Source: a virus (lineage: Duplodnaviria > Caudoviricetes). From it: a stretch of 64,000 bases of DNA. The translations under genes were made by a program, and so were the position numbers. Below, piece after piece: positions 3,122-31,184 of this stretch. Below the pieces are notes generated by a model that did no database searches, was not told the DNA's origin, and saw nothing but the letters and a program-made list of their open reading frames with translations. The DNA lies in IMG/VR virus record IMGVR_UViG_3300045015_000053; one strand, 5' to 3'. Within the stretch, counting starts at the first letter, position 1, and each line of letters opens with the position of its first letter.

Positions 3122-4201
3122 TCAGTCCGAATCGGCGATCACGACCCACGCATTGTGGGTCGTGTCCCATTTCGGCAGTTCGGCGATGCCACTCTGTTCG
3201 TAGCCGAAGCTGATCTTGAAGTCGTCCCCGTACCGGCCTTTGGTCTTGGTGTTAACCTTGCCCATGAGCCGGACATTTCTTTTCATGTACTCCGAATACC
3301 CGTAGTTGCTTATGCCATTGTAAAAATCATCGATGTAGTCAGGTACGTCGAGTTCGATCACGCCCTGGCTCCAGCCGTGGTATTGCACCATCGCTCTGTC
3401 GCCGTCCCGCATCAGTTTCGGCCATTTTACATCGGCCATAAACCGTTTCACGAATTGCGGTTTGGTCATCTTTGTTTCGTCGGCCAGATCTTCGTGTACT
3501 TCCGGTGGTTGGAACTCGGCCATCGCCTCTGCCACTTCGGGTTCGCGTAGGAAGTCGATCTTCTGGGCCTTCTCGCCACGCAGTTTGTTGATGGCGTCTT
3601 TCATCTCGTCAACTTTGCCGCCCATCCTCTGAACCCACTCCTTGATCACCTCGGCCATAACCGCCGCGAAGATCTTGTCGGCGATGTTGTCGTAGCCGTT
3701 CGCGAGGCCGGCGACGAACCGCTTGGTCCCTTCCGCCCAAGCCGCACTGCCCACGTCGTCAAAGAGTTCTCCGTCAACCTCGAAGACGGCGTCAATGATC
3801 GCTTCCGTCGTCTCGTCGTCCAGTTCTTCTTTTTCTTTGAGGTGCTTCCGCAGTTCTTCCATGTGCTTGTTGACTTCGAGGACGTAAGCCGCTGTTTTAC
3901 CGGCACGCCACACCTTCGACCCACCCGACACAGCCCCGGATACGATCTTCCAGATACTTGTTGCCGCGCCTACAACGTTGCCCGTCGCCGCACTAGCCGC
4001 CAACCCGGTGACGCCTTTGGCGAGGCTCCAGGCGTCACCTGCGGCACCGGCCACGTCTTTGTTCCTCATCGCGTGTGCGGTCGCCACACTCGAAGTCGAT
4101 GGCTTGCCCAAGATCTTGTCCTTCAAGTCTTTCAGCCTGCCCTCGTCAATGAGCGGATCGCGGTTCTGAACGTATTCGTTGAATGATAGTGGTCACGCCA
4201 T
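3122..4201 (-). CDS. hypothetical protein; likely true start ATG 4201 with in-frame TGA at codon 3
   Basis: GGAGG then ATG GCG TGA CCA CTA TCA TTC AAC GAA TAC in frame with track ORF 3122..4126. Confidence 0.55.
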
Positions 4202-4265: not shown

Positions 4266-4778
4266 ATGAGCAAAGAACAAACAATTCAGCACATCAACCG
4301 CGTCCGCAAGCTGATGAGCCGGGCCGTCTCCAGCCTCGTCGTTCGCGCCGTCAAACACGATGAGAGCAAGCTCAAGTCGCCCGAAGTCGAGATCTTCGAG
4401 GAATACACACCAAAACTTGCCGGAAGCACATACGGCAGCGAAGAATACGAGAGCTTCCGCAAGGCGATGAAACCGGGCCTTGACCATCACTACGCACACA
4501 ATTCTCATCATCCTGAGCATTTCGCCGATGGCGTTCACGGGATGAGTCTTTTGGACCTTTTGGAAATGGTGTGCGACTGGAAGGCCGCGACCGAACGACA
4601 CAACGACGGGGACATCCTCAAGAGCCTCGAAATCAACCAGAAGCGGTTCGGCTACGACGACAATCTGAAGAAGATCTTCTTCAACACCGTCAAGGAACTC
4701 GGTTTTCTGAACGAAGTGCCTACAGAACAACCGAAGCCGAACCCGGATCGTCCGGTATACCCGCGAAAAGAGGGATAA
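4266..4778 (+). CDS. HD-like phage protein (DUF5662-like)
   Basis: HI..V...HDESK...HHY.HN.HHPEH...DLLEMVCDW.AA. Confidence 0.7.
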   Translation: MSKEQTIQHINRVRKLMSRAVSSLVVRAVKHDESKLKSPEVEIFEEYTPKLAGSTYGSEEYESFRKAMKPGLDHHYAHNSHHPEHFADGVHGMSLLDLLEMVCDWKAATERHNDGDILKSLEINQKRFGYDDNLKKIFFNTVKELGFLNEVPTEQPKPNPDRPVYPRKEG

Positions 4779-5158
4779 TGTCAGCCTACGAACTTGCAGA
4801 AACACTCAAAGAGTTGTTACTCGAAGATGGCCGCGAAAATCCCTTCTACATGTCAAGCGACGACAAGGGTGACAGGTACAAAGCGGCCGTTACCGAAGTC
4901 ATCAAAAGACTTCAACACAGATTCGACAAAAACATGCCCAAAGAGGTTGTCACCGTTGGCGATCTCCGCGCCGCGTTGAGCTATTCGGAGGACGAAGAAC
5001 CCGTCGTCTTCGATCTCAAGGAAGACACAGTTTACGGGCAGAAGACCGTTCCGCTCAAATGCAGCGGCGTCGGTTCCAGTGGCGGCGGCAGGATCACGGT
5101 CCTCTGGCTCGACAAGAAAAACTACCCAAAAGACTACCTCCCGAAGAATGATGACTGA
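4778..5158 (+). CDS. hypothetical protein
   Basis: TAATG stop/start overlap. Confidence 0.55.
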   Translation: MSAYELAETLKELLLEDGRENPFYMSSDDKGDRYKAAVTEVIKRLQHRFDKNMPKEVVTVGDLRAALSYSEDEEPVVFDLKEDTVYGQKTVPLKCSGVGSSGGGRITVLWLDKKNYPKDYLPKNDD

Positions 5159-5162
5159 ATCC

Positions 5163-5175
5163 GGTCTATACTGAC
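5163..5175 (+). promoter_or_regulatory. GGTCTATACTGAC motif (copy 1 of 4 exact)
   Basis: exact copies at 5163, 27701, 46378, 51453, each 23-32 nt before a start codon. Confidence 0.6.
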
Positions 5176-5204
5176 CCGGATTCCATACTCAACCAGAGGC
5201 TGTC

Positions 5205-5804
5205 ATGGAAAGCGCCATTTATGGCAAAGGCATGGCCGGCAAGGGAGTTACGCCGTCCATCGCCCTTTGCAATCCGAAGTACGCTCACAACGTGGGTACG
5301 ATTGTCCGCGCCGCTTCTTGTTTCGGAGCGAAGCAAGTTTGGTTTTCCGGCAACCGGGTGTCGCTCGACCCGAAGAAGGGGGAGCGGTTGCCGCGAGAGG
5401 AGCGGATGAAGGGCTACAAGAACGTCGAACTGCGTCAGTACGACTACTTCTTCGACATGTTCGAGAAGGACGTGGTTCCGGTGGCGATTGAGCTTCGCCC
5501 CGGCAGCGAGTTGTTGACGGACTTCGTCCACCCGGAGAAGGCGTTGTACGTCTTCGGGCCGGAAGACGGCAGCATCCCGCAAGTCATGATGCGTCACTGC
5601 CATCGGTTCGTCGTGATCCCCACACACCACTGCGTCAACCTCGCGGCGGCGGTCTACATGATCCTGTACGACCGCATGTTGAAGCGGCACCAGACCGGCG
5701 AGGAACCGATCACCTCGATGGACGAAATCCTGAAAGAGAATCGGGGCTGGTCGTCGCCCGACAACAACGGCGAAACCCGTGACTTGCTGGAAACGATGAA
5801 GTAA
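5205..5804 (+). CDS. SpoU/TrmH-family (SPOUT) RNA 2'-O-methyltransferase
   Basis: NPKYAHNVGTIVRAASCFG; FGPEDGSIP; CVNLAAAVYMILYDR. Confidence 0.85.
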   Translation: MESAIYGKGMAGKGVTPSIALCNPKYAHNVGTIVRAASCFGAKQVWFSGNRVSLDPKKGERLPREERMKGYKNVELRQYDYFFDMFEKDVVPVAIELRPGSELLTDFVHPEKALYVFGPEDGSIPQVMMRHCHRFVVIPTHHCVNLAAAVYMILYDRMLKRHQTGEEPITSMDEILKENRGWSSPDNNGETRDLLETMK

Positions 5805-26120: not shown

Positions 26121-26921
26121 ATGCCCGCCAAGAAGCCCGCCAAAGAAGTCGATCCGCTGGACGATTTCCGCAAGAAGATGAACCGTGAAAACCGCGCCAA
26201 CAAGAAAGCGTTGGATGGCCTGAAGGCCAACAAGCACTTCAATGCTGAGACGGTCATGGCCGAGCTTTTCGCCGGTCTGGAATGCGGCTCCCTTCACATC
26301 GGTTGGGCGTTAGACAAGTTCTGGGGTCTGAAGGTCGCGGAGACGATGCCCAAGCTGCAAAAGATCTACGACGAGGCCGTGAAGCGGAACTACACCCGCG
26401 AGAACAACCTGTCCTTCAACGACATGGACGACAAGCTGTTCGTCATGCCGCACGACCAGTATTGTGTCCTCTGCCACGAGTTGCAGAGTTCCAACTACGT
26501 CTACGTCTGGGAACGGAACGCGCCGTCCAAGTTCCAGAAACTGCACGTCCGGCGTTACTTCGACGTACTGAAGGTCGAAGACAAGTTCGACAAGCAGGAA
26601 GAAGCCGAGTTCAAGAAAAAGGTTCGTGAGAAGGGCAAGCGTGCGGGGATCATCGCCGCGCAACGGTTCGTTGAGAACTACGCCGACGACTACCCGGAAA
26701 ATCCGTACCCGAAGCGGCTCTCGCTGGACAGCTACATCAAGGCCGGCTTCGAGATGAAGTACGGCGACTGCCGTGACGAGGGCTACATCCTGACGTGGGA
26801 CCAGTTCCGCGACTCGGTTGATCGGTCGTACTACGAACACAGTCGGATCGAAGCAGTCCTCGACTGCTACATTCCGAGCATCGAATACGCACTCTTTGAA
26901 GAAGGGCGGGAAGAAGAATGA
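26121..26921 (+). CDS. hypothetical protein
   Basis: ORF track. Confidence 0.55.
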   Translation: MPAKKPAKEVDPLDDFRKKMNRENRANKKALDGLKANKHFNAETVMAELFAGLECGSLHIGWALDKFWGLKVAETMPKLQKIYDEAVKRNYTRENNLSFNDMDDKLFVMPHDQYCVLCHELQSSNYVYVWERNAPSKFQKLHVRRYFDVLKVEDKFDKQEEAEFKKKVREKGKRAGIIAAQRFVENYADDYPENPYPKRLSLDSYIKAGFEMKYGDCRDEGYILTWDQFRDSVDRSYYEHSRIEAVLDCYIPSIEYALFEEGREEE

Positions 26922-27691
26922 AGCTCACATTCGCCGGTGTCGGTTCGGCCTTCACCGACAGCCGTTACTGGCAATCGAACATGTTCTTCACCTCGAAGCA
27001 GGGGAAGAGATTGATGATCGATTGCGGCGGTGATGCCCGGTTCAGTTTCGGCGAACACGGCGCTACCAACCGCAACATCGGGGATTGGTCGGATGGCGTT
27101 TACATCAGCCACCTTCACGCCGACCACATCGGCGGGCTGGAGTGGTACGCCTTCTGCACCTACTTCAATCCCAACGTGTCGCGGCCCAAGTTGTTCATCG
27201 TGGACGAACTGGTCGATCCGCTGTGGGAGAGCTTGAAGGGCGGGCTGGCCTCGCTGGAAGGCAAGGTCATGACGCTCGAAGACTTCTTCGACGTGCGTGA
27301 GTTGCACATCAACAGCAGCTTCGTCTGGGAGGAACTGAACTTCACCCCGATTCAGACCGTTCACATTATGAACGGCATGGGGATCGTGCCTTCTTACGGG
27401 TTGCTCGTCAAAGAAAACGGCAACCCCGCGACCGCGTTCATCACCACGGACACGCAATACTGTCCGCGCCAGATCGAGCGATTCTACGAACGCTCCAGCA
27501 TCATCTTCCACGACGCCGAAACCGGCGCGAGACGGAGCGGCATTCACGCATACTACGACGACCTCAAGACGTTGCAAGCCGAACACAAGGCGAAGATGTG
27601 GTTGTATCACTACAACCCCGACCCGACCCAAGAAGCCGAGGCAGACGGGTTCAAAGGGTTTGTGAAAAAGGGACAAACCTTCGAGATCTAA
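26918..27691 (+). CDS. MBL-fold metallohydrolase, RNase Z/cAMP-phosphodiesterase-like
   Basis: LMIDCG; SHLHADHIGGL (HxHxDH); FITTDTQ; IFHDAE; WLYHY. Confidence 0.85.
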   Translation: MKLTFAGVGSAFTDSRYWQSNMFFTSKQGKRLMIDCGGDARFSFGEHGATNRNIGDWSDGVYISHLHADHIGGLEWYAFCTYFNPNVSRPKLFIVDELVDPLWESLKGGLASLEGKVMTLEDFFDVRELHINSSFVWEELNFTPIQTVHIMNGMGIVPSYGLLVKENGNPATAFITTDTQYCPRQIERFYERSSIIFHDAETGARRSGIHAYYDDLKTLQAEHKAKMWLYHYNPDPTQEAEADGFKGFVKKGQTFEI

Positions 27692-27736: not shown

Positions 27737-28132
27737 ATGATCAGCCCAAAAGAACTCCGCAAACTGACTGACGAAGCTCTGGTCAACGCCGAGAAGGAAC
27801 GAACTCGGCAGGCCGAGGAGCAGTTGCGGATTGCCGAAGAGAACAAAAAGAAACGCGAGAACCGCGCCGCGACGATTCTGGCCGAGATCCCCGCAAAAGC
27901 TCGCGAGGCGGCGGTGAAGGGGAGTTGTTCGGTCGCCATCATGCGACTAGAATACCCTGAGTTCGACAAACCGTCCGGCACCCACTTCGCCCTTTGCGAA
28001 CCGCAATGGTTGAAGGGCGCGGCCAAGATCGTGTGGGATCACTGCGTCGAGGCCAATCTGAAGCCGAGGCTGGAACACTGGCACGACGGCGTGGGCATCC
28101 ACGAGAGCTTCGACATCATCGTACAATGGTAG
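27737..28132 (+). CDS. hypothetical protein
   Basis: GAGG RBS. Confidence 0.55.
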   Translation: MISPKELRKLTDEALVNAEKERTRQAEEQLRIAEENKKKRENRAATILAEIPAKAREAAVKGSCSVAIMRLEYPEFDKPSGTHFALCEPQWLKGAAKIVWDHCVEANLKPRLEHWHDGVGIHESFDIIVQW

Positions 28133-28139
28133 TCTTCTT

Positions 28140-28772
28140 GAAGGGTAGGCCACAACCAAAGGGTGGCCGGCTCGGTAAGAGCCGCAGTCGGGAATCTTGC
28201 CCGGTCTGGCATACATCGTGATAGACATAGTATGCCCACGAGGAGCCGCGCGAAAACTGGTGTATAACACTGGTGGCCTAGACGAATCCAAAGTCGAGAA
28301 ATTGGGACGGTGGTAACGTCGTAAGCGTTACCGCACCAACGCGAAAAATGGCCCGGTCGCTCTGGGGAACAGGGCGGCGACGAGCAAAGGTCGAAAACGC
28401 CGTCCGTGGTTGACGTAAAACTAGCCCTTCCTGGCGCGAAGTGAAACTCGTTGTGTTTTCTGGTTGTCGCTACAACCGGCCCCATTTCAACAGTTGGGGG
28501 CAAATTAACTGGCCCTTTTCAATGGTTGGGGTAACTAACTAGCCCTTTTAAGCGGGTTGGGGCAAGCTCAGGAATCTGAGCGGACTAACTGCCGATCTTG
28601 TCAGTTCTCCGTAACTGAACTGACCCGATGACGCCGGATCGTGAAGCCGTCCAGCTAGAAAACCCGTCATGCGTGTGGTTCGCCATTGCATGGGGATGCT
28701 GGCCCTTGAAATAGATCGTTCCGGCGTTTGACGCACTCATCGCCCCGGTCAGAAATGGCCGGGGCGTTTTCT
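28140..28772 (+). ncRNA. candidate large structured ncRNA
   Basis: ~640-nt intergenic stretch without a convincing CDS, at least 10 stems, UUCG/GAAA tetraloops, ends in terminator. Confidence 0.55.
28741..28772 (+). terminator. intrinsic terminator
   Basis: CGCCCCGGTCA-gaaa-TGGCCGGGGCG-TTTTCTT. Confidence 0.8.
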
Positions 28773-28845
28773 TGTTCCAAAAAACTCGGACAGCCGCCCG
28801 TAGTCACCGTTAAGAACCAACGTCGCCCCCAACAAGGTACTCAAG

Positions 28846-29598
28846 ATGAGCAGCATCCACATCACGAGCTTCGTTCGCCGCCAAACCCCGCAGAGCGGTT
28901 TCTCGCACTGGACGATCAGTGACGACGAACTGATCTCTCGCGTGGTGGCGGGCCTCCCCAACGCCAAGCGGGGCTACCGCGACGGCGTGTTACTCGTGCC
29001 GGTCAAGCCGGACGGGTTCTTCGCCGGCCTCGTCAAACTCAAGGACGGGGACAAGCTCGTCGGCGAGTACAAAGCACGCAGACCCGGCGAAGACCCACGC
29101 AAGTCAACATACGCCCTCGACGGCGTCAAGATGCCCGCCGTGAGCGTGTACGTCGTCCTCTACGCTCACGACGTGTTGGCCGAGAAGAACGAAAACGAAA
29201 CCGACGCGGCGTTCGAGGTCGTGTCCGTCAACGCGAACGTGACGGAAGAGGAAGCTCCGATTCCGACCGGCGCTCTCATCGCCAACCACTTCGGGCTGTC
29301 CGGTGGCACGAACACCAACATGACGGACAGCGAGTTCGTCGCGTTGCTCCGCAAGAGCGTGGAGTTCTGGAAGGACAAGGCTTTGGCCTGTCCGCAGGAA
29401 CTGAAGCCCGACGCAGTCGCAGTTGATATTTTCAACTGCATGTTCCGTGGGTGGGCTGCTGGCGACTTCCGCCTCGCGTCCGGCATCAGCTATGGGCAAG
29501 TGATCGAGTGGACGAAGTCGCAGGGCGGCGATCCCACACCGCTACTCAGGCGAATGGCGGAACTCGAAGAGTTGGCTAAGAACTACAAAGACAGCTAA
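28846..29598 (+). CDS. DUF3228-like protein
   Basis: FVRRQ..S.FSHW; GYRDGVLLVPV; VVLYAHDVLAE; NHFGLSGGT. Confidence 0.65.
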   Translation: MSSIHITSFVRRQTPQSGFSHWTISDDELISRVVAGLPNAKRGYRDGVLLVPVKPDGFFAGLVKLKDGDKLVGEYKARRPGEDPRKSTYALDGVKMPAVSVYVVLYAHDVLAEKNENETDAAFEVVSVNANVTEEEAPIPTGALIANHFGLSGGTNTNMTDSEFVALLRKSVEFWKDKALACPQELKPDAVAVDIFNCMFRGWAAGDFRLASGISYGQVIEWTKSQGGDPTPLLRRMAELEELAKNYKDS

Positions 29599-29652: not shown

Positions 29653-30228
29653 ATGAAAACCTTCGCAGAGTGGCTCGCCGTGGAAGCTCGCGCACCCAAG
29701 AACGAGTTGTTGCAATACGCACCCAACAAGAAGTATTTCACCATTTCTCCGCAATGGCACGACTTCTCTATTTGGTTTGAAAAGCAACCGCCGTCCGACG
29801 CCGAACTCAGGATGATGGCCGAAATCATCAGCGGTCACGGATTCCCGACCAGAGTTGCCAAGACGGGCGAGCAATGGCCCTACAGCGGTGACAGGCGGTA
29901 CGACGATCTGGCTGACGAAATCCGTCACAAGTGGGACGTTGCAGTTGATGACGCCGTCGAGGGCGTCCGAAAGTATCGCGCCGTTGTCGGCAGGAAGATC
30001 TCACACGGCACTCACCACGACGGCGGCGAGCGGATGCCATTCTATAACGACCAGATCGCCACCATCGTACACAACCTGCGATACGTCAAAGACGACCCCG
30101 AAAAAGCCAAGAAGATGTTCGACGCAATGGACCGCAACACCAAGTTCATTCTCGTTCACGACGCCGGTATGTTCACCTCGGACGGCGCATTGACTCCAGT
30201 CGCATCACAGTACCTCCGAGGCTACTAA
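29653..30228 (+). CDS. hypothetical protein with MKTFAEW N-terminus
   Basis: resembles T4 internal-protein capsid-targeting sequence. Confidence 0.55.
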   Translation: MKTFAEWLAVEARAPKNELLQYAPNKKYFTISPQWHDFSIWFEKQPPSDAELRMMAEIISGHGFPTRVAKTGEQWPYSGDRRYDDLADEIRHKWDVAVDDAVEGVRKYRAVVGRKISHGTHHDGGERMPFYNDQIATIVHNLRYVKDDPEKAKKMFDAMDRNTKFILVHDAGMFTSDGALTPVASQYLRGY

Positions 30229-31184
30229 CTAAGATGAGGGATTGCCTTCTCGCCCACCCACGCGAGAATCTTGGTATCACCACGCTCTACCGCCTCGATC
30301 CAGCGGTGTTTGCCTTCGATAACGACCACCGGCCCTTTCACTGTGTAGGTGGGGTGTTTGCTCAACACTTCGTTCGCTTCCACGATGATCGGCCCTAAGC
30401 TTTGGCTGCACGGCAGGTACTGCGGTCCTGTCGGTTTGAGTTTGGCGGTTTCCACTTCCATCAACTTGAACTTCTTGCTCACCACCAGATCAATCGGCAC
30501 CGGGTCCAGCATTCCACGCACCTGATGCTCGTCAACTTCGGCTGCGTACTGGAAGAAACCCCACGAAACGGCTTGTTTGAAGAAGTCCTTCATCTTCCCG
30601 AACATCACGAACTTCTGGTCGTCGTCCTCCACGATTCCGTCTTTGGCCGCGAACGCGGTCATGGGATTCTTGTTTTCCGATTTTAGCAGCCGGCTCAGGT
30701 ACGGGAAAACGGCGGGCGGCACCAGTGATCGCGCCGCTTCGTAGCCTTTGTTGATGCACACGTCTTTGACGGTACTGGATCGGATGTTCCTGATCTTGTC
30801 CGGGCCGAAGACGTAGTAGAAGTTGAGTTGCGGGCCGTGCGCCCGCATGTTCCGCTCGATGGCCTGCTCGTACACCAGATCGCGAGCATCGCGAACCCCA
30901 CGAACGAGACAGATGTCGTTAAAATGAATGCCGCGTTCTGCGACCTGTTTCTTGCACCAGTCAACTGTCGTGGGGGTGTCAAGTATCTGGACGTAGGCTT
31001 TGGTGTGGGAGATTGATAGGGAGAGCATGTCCGCGCGTTCGCGGAGGGTGAAGGTGTAGTGCTTGGCGGGGTTGGGGCCAATGACCGCCTGAACCTCGTC
31101 GGCCATCTTGCAGGCTTGTTCGATGAGGTAAACGTGGCCGAGTTGTACGGGATCGTAACTGCCGGCGACGACAGCGATTTTCAT
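30225..31184 (-). CDS. coaD: phosphopantetheine adenylyltransferase fused to ParB/Srx-like domain
   Basis: GSYDPVQLGH; LVRGVRDARDLVYE; RSSTVKDV; C-terminal PIIV..VVIEGKHRW. Confidence 0.75.
   Translation of the reverse strand: MKIAVVAGSYDPVQLGHVYLIEQACKMADEVQAVIGPNPAKHYTFTLRERADMLSLSISHTKAYVQILDTPTTVDWCKKQVAERGIHFNDICLVRGVRDARDLVYEQAIERNMRAHGPQLNFYYVFGPDKIRNIRSSTVKDVCINKGYEAARSLVPPAVFPYLSRLLKSENKNPMTAFAAKDGIVEDDDQKFVMFGKMKDFFKQAVSWGFFQYAAEVDEHQVRGMLDPVPIDLVVSKKFKLMEVETAKLKPTGPQYLPCSQSLGPIIVEANEVLSKHPTYTVKGPVVVIEGKHRWIEAVERGDTKILAWVGEKAIPHLS

Follow-up and report, generated by a model that had tools for sequence, protein, structure and literature searches.

What does a large phage keep in an intergenic stretch of several hundred bases that holds no recognisable gene? 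The question is raised by a locus in a record of the Caudoviricetes (Duplodnaviria; IMG/VR record IMGVR_UViG_3300045015_000053), of which a stretch of 64,000 nucleotides, hereafter the window, was analysed. Here, 713 bases without a credible gene separate the TAG of a 131-codon gene (27737-28132, + strand) from the ATG of a 250-codon gene that begins at 28846 on the same strand. A reading made from the sequence alone had described this gap as free of coding sequence and as a candidate for a large phage non-coding RNA. The gap is real, as the flanking genes, the gene calls and the stop counts agree: an independent gene caller places zero genes in the gap of an identical contig (L047), and each of the three + frames of 28133-28779 contains 9-11 stops. 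The candidate itself is supported, the comparative evidence being decisive, and we regard it as very probable that a conserved, highly structured RNA of about 650 nt, belonging to an uncatalogued family, is encoded by 28133-28779 and transcribed from the + strand.

Relatives of the element are found at two further loci (L051 and L059) and as read-level fragments in soil metatranscriptomes (X16 and X17) and in a lake metagenome (X9). The first leads came from the alignment of public sequencing runs to this stretch of the window. L051 lies in an IMG/VR record of 532,729 bp and was found with the translated antisense frame as query; L059 is a contig of 1,938 bp that ends within the element and was found by an exact-pattern scan of metagenomes. 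The element is present once in the window and once in the 532-kb record. Two core domains, which we term domains 2 and 4, occur in that order in the window and in L051, and L059 carries domain 2 with its two blocks and stops ahead of domain 4. As a signature of the family we propose the domain 2 junction followed by the domain 4 hairpin, with the blocks CGCACCAAC..AAAATGGCCC, AGGTCGRAAACGCCGTCCGT and TGCGTGTGGYTYGCCATTGCA; the window and L051 display it in full, the order and the third block lying outside the part covered by L059.

Identity in the two cores is 80-95% between phages that have unrelated flanking proteins or flanking proteins with 34% identity. In particular, the window and L059 share 87.6% identity over 161 nt of the RNA core, and the element adjoins in both the same upstream gene, whose 131-aa product is only 34% identical between them. 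In L051 the gene ahead of the element encodes a phage bL12 (Pfam, 1.3e-20), a YqeY-like gene lies farther upstream, and an unrelated 96-codon gene comes after the element; the L051 phage has no copy of the 131-aa gene and shares no flanking gene with the window.

Compensatory changes between these relatives occur in at least eight helices. In domain 2, compared across three sequences, a model of 26 pairs is 91% paired and six pairs differ on both sides, whereas shifted partners give 0-3 such pairs; helix P2.2 alone accounts for four of the six. The soil contig X16, which is 95% identical to 28283-28433, differs at seven positions, four of which are the two sides of two base pairs in hairpin P2.1 (28312-28332): 28314 T>C with 28330 A>G turns U-A into C-G, and 28315 A>T with 28329 T>G turns A-U into U-G. 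The segments that join the helices of domain 2 are invariant (CGCACCAAC-GCG-AAAATGGCCC and AAAACGCCGTCCGT), and the strings kept across the homologues read CGCACCAAC..GCG.AAAATGGCCC and AGGTCG.AAACGCCGTCCGT. A covariance model of the domain scores 154, 150 and 111 bits at the three loci and, run against 165 kb of loci and five whole phage records, has no further match.

Domain 4 displays the same pattern. In a MAFFT alignment of the window and L051 a model of 30 pairs is 93% paired, and seven pairs differ on both sides; with the partners shifted by 1-3 columns, 36-49% are paired and 0-1 pairs differ in this way. Helix CCAGC/GCTGG of the window, for example, corresponds to GTTGC/GCAAC in L051, and CATGC/GCATG to CCTGC/GCAGG. 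The internal loops GTGAAGCCG and CCCTTGAAATAGATCG are conserved, and the shared strings comprise CGTGAAGCCG, TGCGTGTGGTTCGCCATTGCA and CCCTTGA.AT.GATCG.TCC. The lake contig X9 matches 28640-28718 with a change of the tetraloop from UUCG to CUUG, and the soil contig X17 matches 28640-28701 with one difference.

Outside the cores, further helices likewise covary, namely 28148-28168 and 28256-28274 (two compensatory pairs each between the window and L059) and 28462-28477 (in L051). The first of these, P1a, reads GCCGAC/GTTCGGC with loop TACCAAAG in L059, with two pairs changed on both sides, and by eye GCGAC/GTCGT with loop ACGAAAG in L051. The second reads GCCAATC-TATAT-GGTTGGT in L059, where two pairs have changed on both sides and three on one side. 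The third is GGTTGT/ACAAC in L059 and GGTTGA/TCAACC in L051, a change from T-A to A-T. Between P1a and the second hairpin, L051 has by eye GACATGC/GTATGTC at the place that matches GGCATAC/GTATGCC of the window, and the motif GGTYTGRYATRCA found at this place occurs once in the window (here only) and twice each in L059 and L051.

These comparisons also bear on the twelve stems listed by the sequence-only reading. Eleven are present in the sequence, exactly or within 1-2 nt of where they had been placed, among them GGCCAC/GTGGCC (28148/28163), GGCATAC/GTATGCC (28208/28230), GGTAACG/CGTTACC (28312/28326), GTCGCTCTG/CAGGGCGGC (28356/28370), GGACGG/CCGTCC (28305/28400), GGTTGT/ACAACC (28462/28472), GCTCAG/CTGAGC (28566/28576), TCAGTTC/GAACTGA (28601/28617) and GTGG-TTCG-CCAT (28675-28686). 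The remaining one, ATGACG/CGTCAT, can be found too but competes with P4.1, P4.3 and P4.4, which are backed by covariation, and for this reason it probably lies outside the native fold. A terminator had been placed at the end of the region, and we find it at 28741-28766, with the T-run after it.

Read on the opposite strand, the G-U pairs of P2.2, P4.1 and P4.5 would become A-C mismatches; the fold is therefore one of the + strand RNA, and the terminator lies on that strand too. The minimum free energy of the + strand has a z-score of -2.9 (0/100 shuffles as good) and that of the - strand one of -1.6. A coding stretch of the same length downstream (28846-29492, +, 647 nt) folds better still than its shuffles (z = -4.1, 0/40 as good). 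Because this coding control scores better than the element, we do not count folding energy as evidence.

A protein gene on the opposite strand would be another source of apparent RNA conservation. The antisense frame 28503-28039 comprises 154 codons, and in each of the three homologues one - strand frame is interrupted by no more than 1-2 stops, with open parts of 128, 116 and 89 aa. Its substitutions show no excess of synonymous changes: between the window and L059 nucleotide identity is 87% and amino-acid identity 80.5%, with five synonymous and eight non-synonymous codon changes, about as in the other frames, and relative to L051 there is a 1-nt indel inside the core. The frame would overlap the upstream gene by 94 nt, is left uncalled by the gene caller and matches nothing in Pfam or PHROGs; an exhaustive HMMER search of 1.84 billion proteins returned one weak match (E 8e-4) to a repeat protein, which is taken as chance. 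The changes in the region are compensatory in RNA helices, and we consider an antisense gene extremely improbable. Nor does a conserved small open reading frame on the + strand account for the region; a frame of 28 codons (28628-28714, over domain 4) is frameshifted by a 1-nt indel in L051. The element is non-coding, structured, strand-specific and conserved, and behaves as an independent genetic module.

Between the two cores lies a variable part of short hairpins, each followed by an A-rich linker of the type U(A/G)AAAC. In most cases the 3' half of the loop can pair just past the linker, in the order stem 1, stem 2, stem 1', linker, stem 2', and the units are therefore read by eye as putative H-type pseudoknots. 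Their number, order and sequence vary among the three phages. At the place of the first window unit, L051 and L059 have by eye one to four units of a short hairpin with a CUGG/UGGA loop followed by U(A/G)AAAC, and have in common GTC-CT-GGTT-T-GAC, a linker and AACC. The three tandem units of the window are a local expansion that comes after the 28462 hairpin, whereas the units of L051 precede it. The sequence of unit 1 is CCCC..CAGTT-GGGG-GCAAATT-AACTG and that of unit 2 CCC..TGGTT-GGGG-TAACT-AACTA; in these paralogous units stem 2 opens with C-G in the former and with T-A in the latter. A pattern for the unit has five overlapping matches covering the three units, against 0.13 expected, and none elsewhere in the window. 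The tandem units themselves are not conserved in L051 or L059, which distinguishes them from domains 2 and 4.

The threefold direct repeat, whose period is about 30 bp, would also fit an element acting at the DNA level, such as origin iterons or an array of protein-binding repeats. Here it is the flanking helices that are conserved and not the repeats, and the G-U pairs make sense only in a + strand RNA. The stretch has a GC content of 57% without an AT-rich part for unwinding, and no replication gene is adjacent. We consequently give this alternative next to no credence.

The distribution of the RNA gene among relatives provides insight into its limits. In a close relative of the window phage (L069), whose downstream protein is 92% identical over 143 aa and whose upstream protein is 52% identical, the upstream stop codon is directly followed by the counterpart of 28780-28845 (82.6% identical) and then by the downstream gene, with no element in between. 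This empty site sets the limits of the element at 28133 and 28779, with the terminator included. The step from 52% to 92% identity makes the insertion point also a mosaic junction. No element follows the 131-aa gene in any of the five relatives checked (L046, L069, L070, L071 and L072; L073 repeats the context of L072), and within this family of about 80 members only L059 (P0004) has the element among the relatives checked. Likewise, L001, a 458-kb IMG/VR phage, has the 250-aa gene without it. For L051, relatives of the downstream gene are 58-79% identical, and four loci (L074-L077) with the same kinds of neighbours (YqeY, bL12, aminoacyl-tRNA synthetases, Ro60-like) lack the element. From the empty sites in L069 and L074-L077 it follows that the element is an accessory cassette, carried by a few very large phages (about 0.5 Mb); in two unrelated genomic contexts it has been gained or lost as a whole. 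At the cassette ends neither terminal inverted repeats nor a duplicated target site were seen. The hexamer TTCTTG occurs near both ends and is absent from the empty site.

The same comparisons speak to a role in cis, either as a 3' untranslated region that stabilises or times the upstream mRNA or as a leader that controls the downstream gene. At all three loci the element starts at the stop codon of a co-oriented gene, with no recognisable promoter, and in L051 it has no terminator and runs directly into the Shine-Dalgarno site of the next gene. The flanks differ, however (the window has 131-aa and 250-aa proteins where L051 has bL12 and a 96-aa protein), and a strong terminator parts the element from the downstream gene in the window. 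Close relatives have the same flanking genes without the element, and 650 nt with invariant junctions far exceed what stabilisation of an mRNA would need. The differing flanks and the terminator of the window lead us to disfavour such a role, which we regard as unlikely. A riboswitch or cis leader was rejected on the same two observations, the downstream genes differing between the window and L051 and the terminator intervening in the window.

Several points weigh against a large structured RNA of this kind. The neighbouring coding control beats the z-score of the element, and the L051 element has a z-score of only -0.6. The covariation counts rest on two to three sequences, and for so few rows the shuffle control is weak, as 3-6 of 500 shuffles reach the observed covariation values. 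P2.0 and P2.1 fit L051 poorly in the modelled register, the covariance model having been fitted to the window and L059; by eye, L051 has at this place a differently built hairpin, GGCC..GACC-CGCAA-GGTC-GGCC. The family is small, with three loci of which one is truncated. At the 5' end no promoter is recognisable, the sole sigma-70-like site nearby lying ahead of the 131-aa gene, and we infer for this reason that the element would be transcribed by read-through from the upstream gene. No transcript is seen for the window phage, and the reads of relatives in RNA libraries could be carried-over DNA. No RNA run covers more than a small share of the stretch, and no listed run has the window phage itself; that relatives turn up as fragments in two RNA libraries, each from a different study, hints weakly at abundance and does not prove transcription.

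The DNA of the window is present in many lake metagenomes, and the same protein occurs on a contig of 475,914 bp. Blastn against 50,697 phage records found no match to the element, and scans of 185,579 prokaryote genomes found no real homologue. The antisense pseudo-protein has one match in IMG/VR, which is L051, and none in GTDB genomes; two further patterns found nothing in GTDB genomes, and a pattern scan with a 21-mer from domain 2 found no match. All 40 single matches of the tandem-unit pattern in IMG/VR are chance. So are the match of the block-4 pattern in a repeat-protein gene (L053) and, in metagenomes and GTDB genomes, those of the block-2 pattern (L054-L058 and L060-L066), of which L059 alone is real.

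Only few classes of large, intricately folded non-coding RNA are known from bacteria and phages (GOLLD, ROOL, OLE, raiA and HEARO); they are rare, and each has spurred structural and functional work. A comparison of the whole window with Rfam 15 by cmscan gives no match at the gathering thresholds and, for the region, only small matches at chance level at E up to 10; L051 and L059 give nothing relevant at E up to 5. According to ARAGORN, the window, L051, L052 and L059 contain neither a tRNA nor a tmRNA. GOLLD, ROOL and tmRNA, to which the sequence-only reading could not match the region by eye, are thereby excluded, and our literature searches found no description of this RNA.

The element is closest in kind to GOLLD and ROOL (RF03087), with OLE and raiA as the wider class, and is a member of neither, nor of any other Rfam family. 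It resembles them in a length of several hundred nucleotides, many helices and sequence-invariant junctions; GOLLD and ROOL are likewise phage-borne accessory genes of patchy distribution and without known biochemical function, acting, as far as is known, as folded RNA and not as message. By contrast, the element scores on none of the covariance models of GOLLD, ROOL, OLE, raiA and HEARO, and no tRNA gene lies in the window, L051, L052 or L059, whereas GOLLD and ROOL often adjoin tRNA genes. It is so far confined to very large environmental phages and has a variable array of mini-pseudoknots.

This array has parallels in other RNAs. In tmRNA, a run of small H-type pseudoknots (PK2-PK4), variable in number and sequence between lineages, likewise lies within a conserved RNA, and tmRNA also occurs in phages rich in translation genes, as the element does. 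Yet the element has neither a tRNA-like domain nor a tag reading frame: ARAGORN and Rfam are negative at all three loci, and no + strand frame is conserved, the 28-codon frame being disrupted in L051. The upstream pseudoknot domain of the tobamovirus 3' untranslated region (RF01080, UPD-PKib) also has consecutive pseudoknots right after a stop codon; it belongs to plant RNA viruses and ends in a tRNA-like structure, which the element lacks, and its sub-threshold match at 28594-28624 (17.6 bits against a gathering threshold of 39, E 3.5) is at chance level. ToxI and pseudo-ToxI consist of units of about 30-36 nt, repeated in tandem and folded as pseudoknots, of which phages are known to carry mimics; the element differs in having only three units, which are unconserved in the homologues and lie inside a larger conserved RNA. 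A type III toxin-antitoxin arrangement, with the repeats directly upstream of a ToxN/AbiE-type endoribonuclease gene, was rejected: no ToxN-like gene is adjacent (the downstream 250-aa protein has a weak DUF3228 match and no PADLOC match), and L069 has the 250-aa gene without the RNA.

Two further candidates were tried and rejected. A CRISPR array or RNA anti-CRISPR was dismissed as the units abut without spacers, and mimicry of CRISPR as they are by eye unlike the two repeat types of the window at 56.4-57.3 kb and 59.1-60.1 kb. We noted strings that resemble RNase P RNA of E. coli (TGGCCTAGACGAAT at 28276-28289, 13/14, and GGGTAGGC at 28143-28150, 8/8), which have no model support and which we take to be chance, as presumably is the further echo TGGCCTAGAYGAAT. 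RNase P RNA was rejected: no model scores at E up to 10, there is no equivalent of CR-I or P4 and, by eye, no string of the GAGGAAAGUCC type, and a P16-type pairing between the echo strings is not kept in L059. An echo of 5S rRNA, likewise without model support, is presumably chance as well.

Very strongly conserved junctions, GNRA-type loops and the cassette-like distribution could also indicate a ribozyme or self-mobile RNA, be it an unrecognised self-processing RNA or an RNase P-like catalyst. No ribozyme, intron or RNase P model of Rfam matches at E up to 10, and the element lies between genes and not within one, is single-copy per genome and lacks terminal repeats and target duplication. 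Catalysis or self-mobility is in our view very unlikely.

A somewhat better case can be made for a counter-defence decoy or sponge, in which the pseudoknots or the junction would sequester a host immune protein or signalling nucleotide. Pseudo-ToxI repeats and RNA anti-CRISPRs are precedents for RNAs in counter-defence. Two genes away from the element lie an Apyc1-like anti-Pycsar gene on the upstream side (Pfam, 8.6e-22) and an NMNAT-like gene on the downstream side; pseudoknots can by eye be drawn for the tandem 30-nt units, and an accessory, patchy distribution is shared with counter-defence genes. Against this, the parts conserved in L051 and L059 are domains 2 and 4 and not the tandem units, PADLOC finds no toxin- or defence-like neighbour, the units are unlike the CRISPR repeats of the phage itself, and the context in L051 is one of translation genes and not of counter-defence. 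A sponge is accordingly improbable.

If the element is a conserved gene for a structured RNA, as we consider very probable, its product would persist as a stable folded RNA, and the probable working surfaces, which would dock a conserved partner, are the invariant domain 2 junction and the domain 4 internal loops. The partner would most likely be a protein or RNA of the translation or RNA-handling machinery, which these phages encode in bulk, and the string of pseudoknots could act as a spacer that is rigid and resists nucleases, or provide additional binding beads. An RNA that acts in trans by docking to such a partner, as an RNP scaffold or sponge, is suggested by the load of translation and RNA-handling genes, the neighbours in L051 (bL12 and YqeY) and the tmRNA-like string of pseudoknots; we put it forward tentatively, and its mechanism is a guess. 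Somewhat more doubtful is the wider idea that the element is the founding member of a class of large ornate RNAs specific to huge phages, exchanged horizontally as a self-contained gene, whose two invariant domains engage translation or RNA quality control of host or phage, or multimerise like ROOL and GOLLD. Homo-oligomer (cage) formation is reported for GOLLD, ROOL and OLE (PMC12286853).

If such a class exists, it would provide huge phages with an RNA-based tool of host takeover. A further class of large RNA, confined to half-megabase phages with genes for ribosomal proteins and aminoacyl-tRNA synthetases, would bring an RNA into the set of players that reprogramme the cell. The presence or absence of the element between near-identical flanks offers a natural knockout comparison, and the cores of 100 nt are small enough for direct structural and binding studies. 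The features of the locus are listed in Table 1.

Table 1. Features of the RNA cassette and its immediate flanks (positions in the window)
Feature	Position	Strand	Description
Whole RNA cassette	28133-28779	+	647 nt, from the base after the upstream TAG to the end of the terminator T-run
Hairpin P1a	28148-28168	+	GGCCAC/GTGGCC, conserved loop AACCAAAG
Conserved motif and hairpin	28203-28236	+	GGTCTGGCATACA, then GGCATAC/GTATGCC
Hairpin	28256-28274	+	ACTGGTG-TATAA-CACTGGT
Core domain 2	28305-28405	+	multi-helix junction
P2.0		+	GGACGG/CCGTCC
P2.1	28312-28332	+	GUAA in loop
P2.2	28356-28378	+	loop GGGAA
P2.3	28379-28392	+	
First unit of variable middle part	28427-28447	+	hairpin CTTC-CTGGCGC-GAAG, then TGAAAC
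Hairpin	28462-28477	+	GGTTGT-CGCT-ACAACC
Three tandem units of about 30 nt	28480-28590	+	each readable as H-type pseudoknot; TRF and repeat search
Unit 1		+	CCCC 28480-83, CAGTT 28491-95, GGGG 28496-99, A-rich linker, AACTG 28507-11
Unit 2	28512-28541	+	
Unit 3	28542-28590	+	hairpin 28566-28581 within its linker
Hairpin	28601-28623	+	TCAGTTC/GAACTGA, extendable to 28595-28629; inverted repeat, window lineage only
Core domain 4	28631-28727	+	long irregular hairpin
P4.1	28631-41/28717-27	+	
P4.2	28651-55/28698-702	+	CCAGC/GCTGG
P4.3		+	CCC/GGG
P4.4		+	CATGC/GCATG
P4.5		+	GTGG-TTCG-CCAT
Intrinsic terminator	28741-28779	+	11-bp stem (9 G-C pairs), loop AGAA, then TTTTCTTGTT
Upstream gene, outside element	27737-28132	+	131 aa, no Pfam family
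Leader of downstream 250-aa gene, outside element	28780-28845	+	82.6% identical to L069 632-700

Other contigs from the same lakes, including one at a depth of 127, also carry the terminator hairpin of the window (28742-28773), with two differences and between unlike flanks. Assemblies of the window phage break just past it, L048 and L049 both stopping at window position 28782. The terminator could be common to, or acquired from, an abundant organism, possibly the host.

The 131-aa protein upstream belongs to a family of about 80 proteins of about 130 aa with the C-terminal motif KIVWDYCV..LKP.LE.WHDGVG and without a match in Pfam, PHROGs or PADLOC. Farther upstream, 26918-27691 (+) encodes a protein of 257 aa with a metallo-beta-lactamase fold that matches Pfam Anti-Pycsar Apyc1 over its full length (8.6e-22), and is likely, to judge from this match, a cyclic-nucleotide-degrading counter-defence protein; four other large IMG/VR contigs encode relatives with 42-43% identity. 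Downstream, 30225-31184 (-) encodes a cytidylyltransferase-like (NMNAT-type) protein of 319 aa, and on a 548-kb contig a relative of the 131-aa gene adjoins NAPRTase and CTP_transf_like genes. These neighbourhoods hint at a putative NAD-salvage counter-defence module near the family of the 131-aa gene.

The surroundings of the L051 element (3295-3762 and 4655-5317, both -), together with L075 and L076, represent a translation cluster of huge phages with bL12 (Pfam, 1.3e-20) and YqeY-like genes. The relatives of this cluster (L075 and L076) have AlaRS-like and GluRS/GlnRS-like fragments and a Ro60-like vWA protein. In L001 (3040-4000), one and the same element of some 45 nt (GATACCAACTAGGGGGACAC..GTGTCCCCCTAG with a T-rich run behind it) recurs after every small gene; this repeated intergenic hairpin is probably a terminator or regulatory unit.

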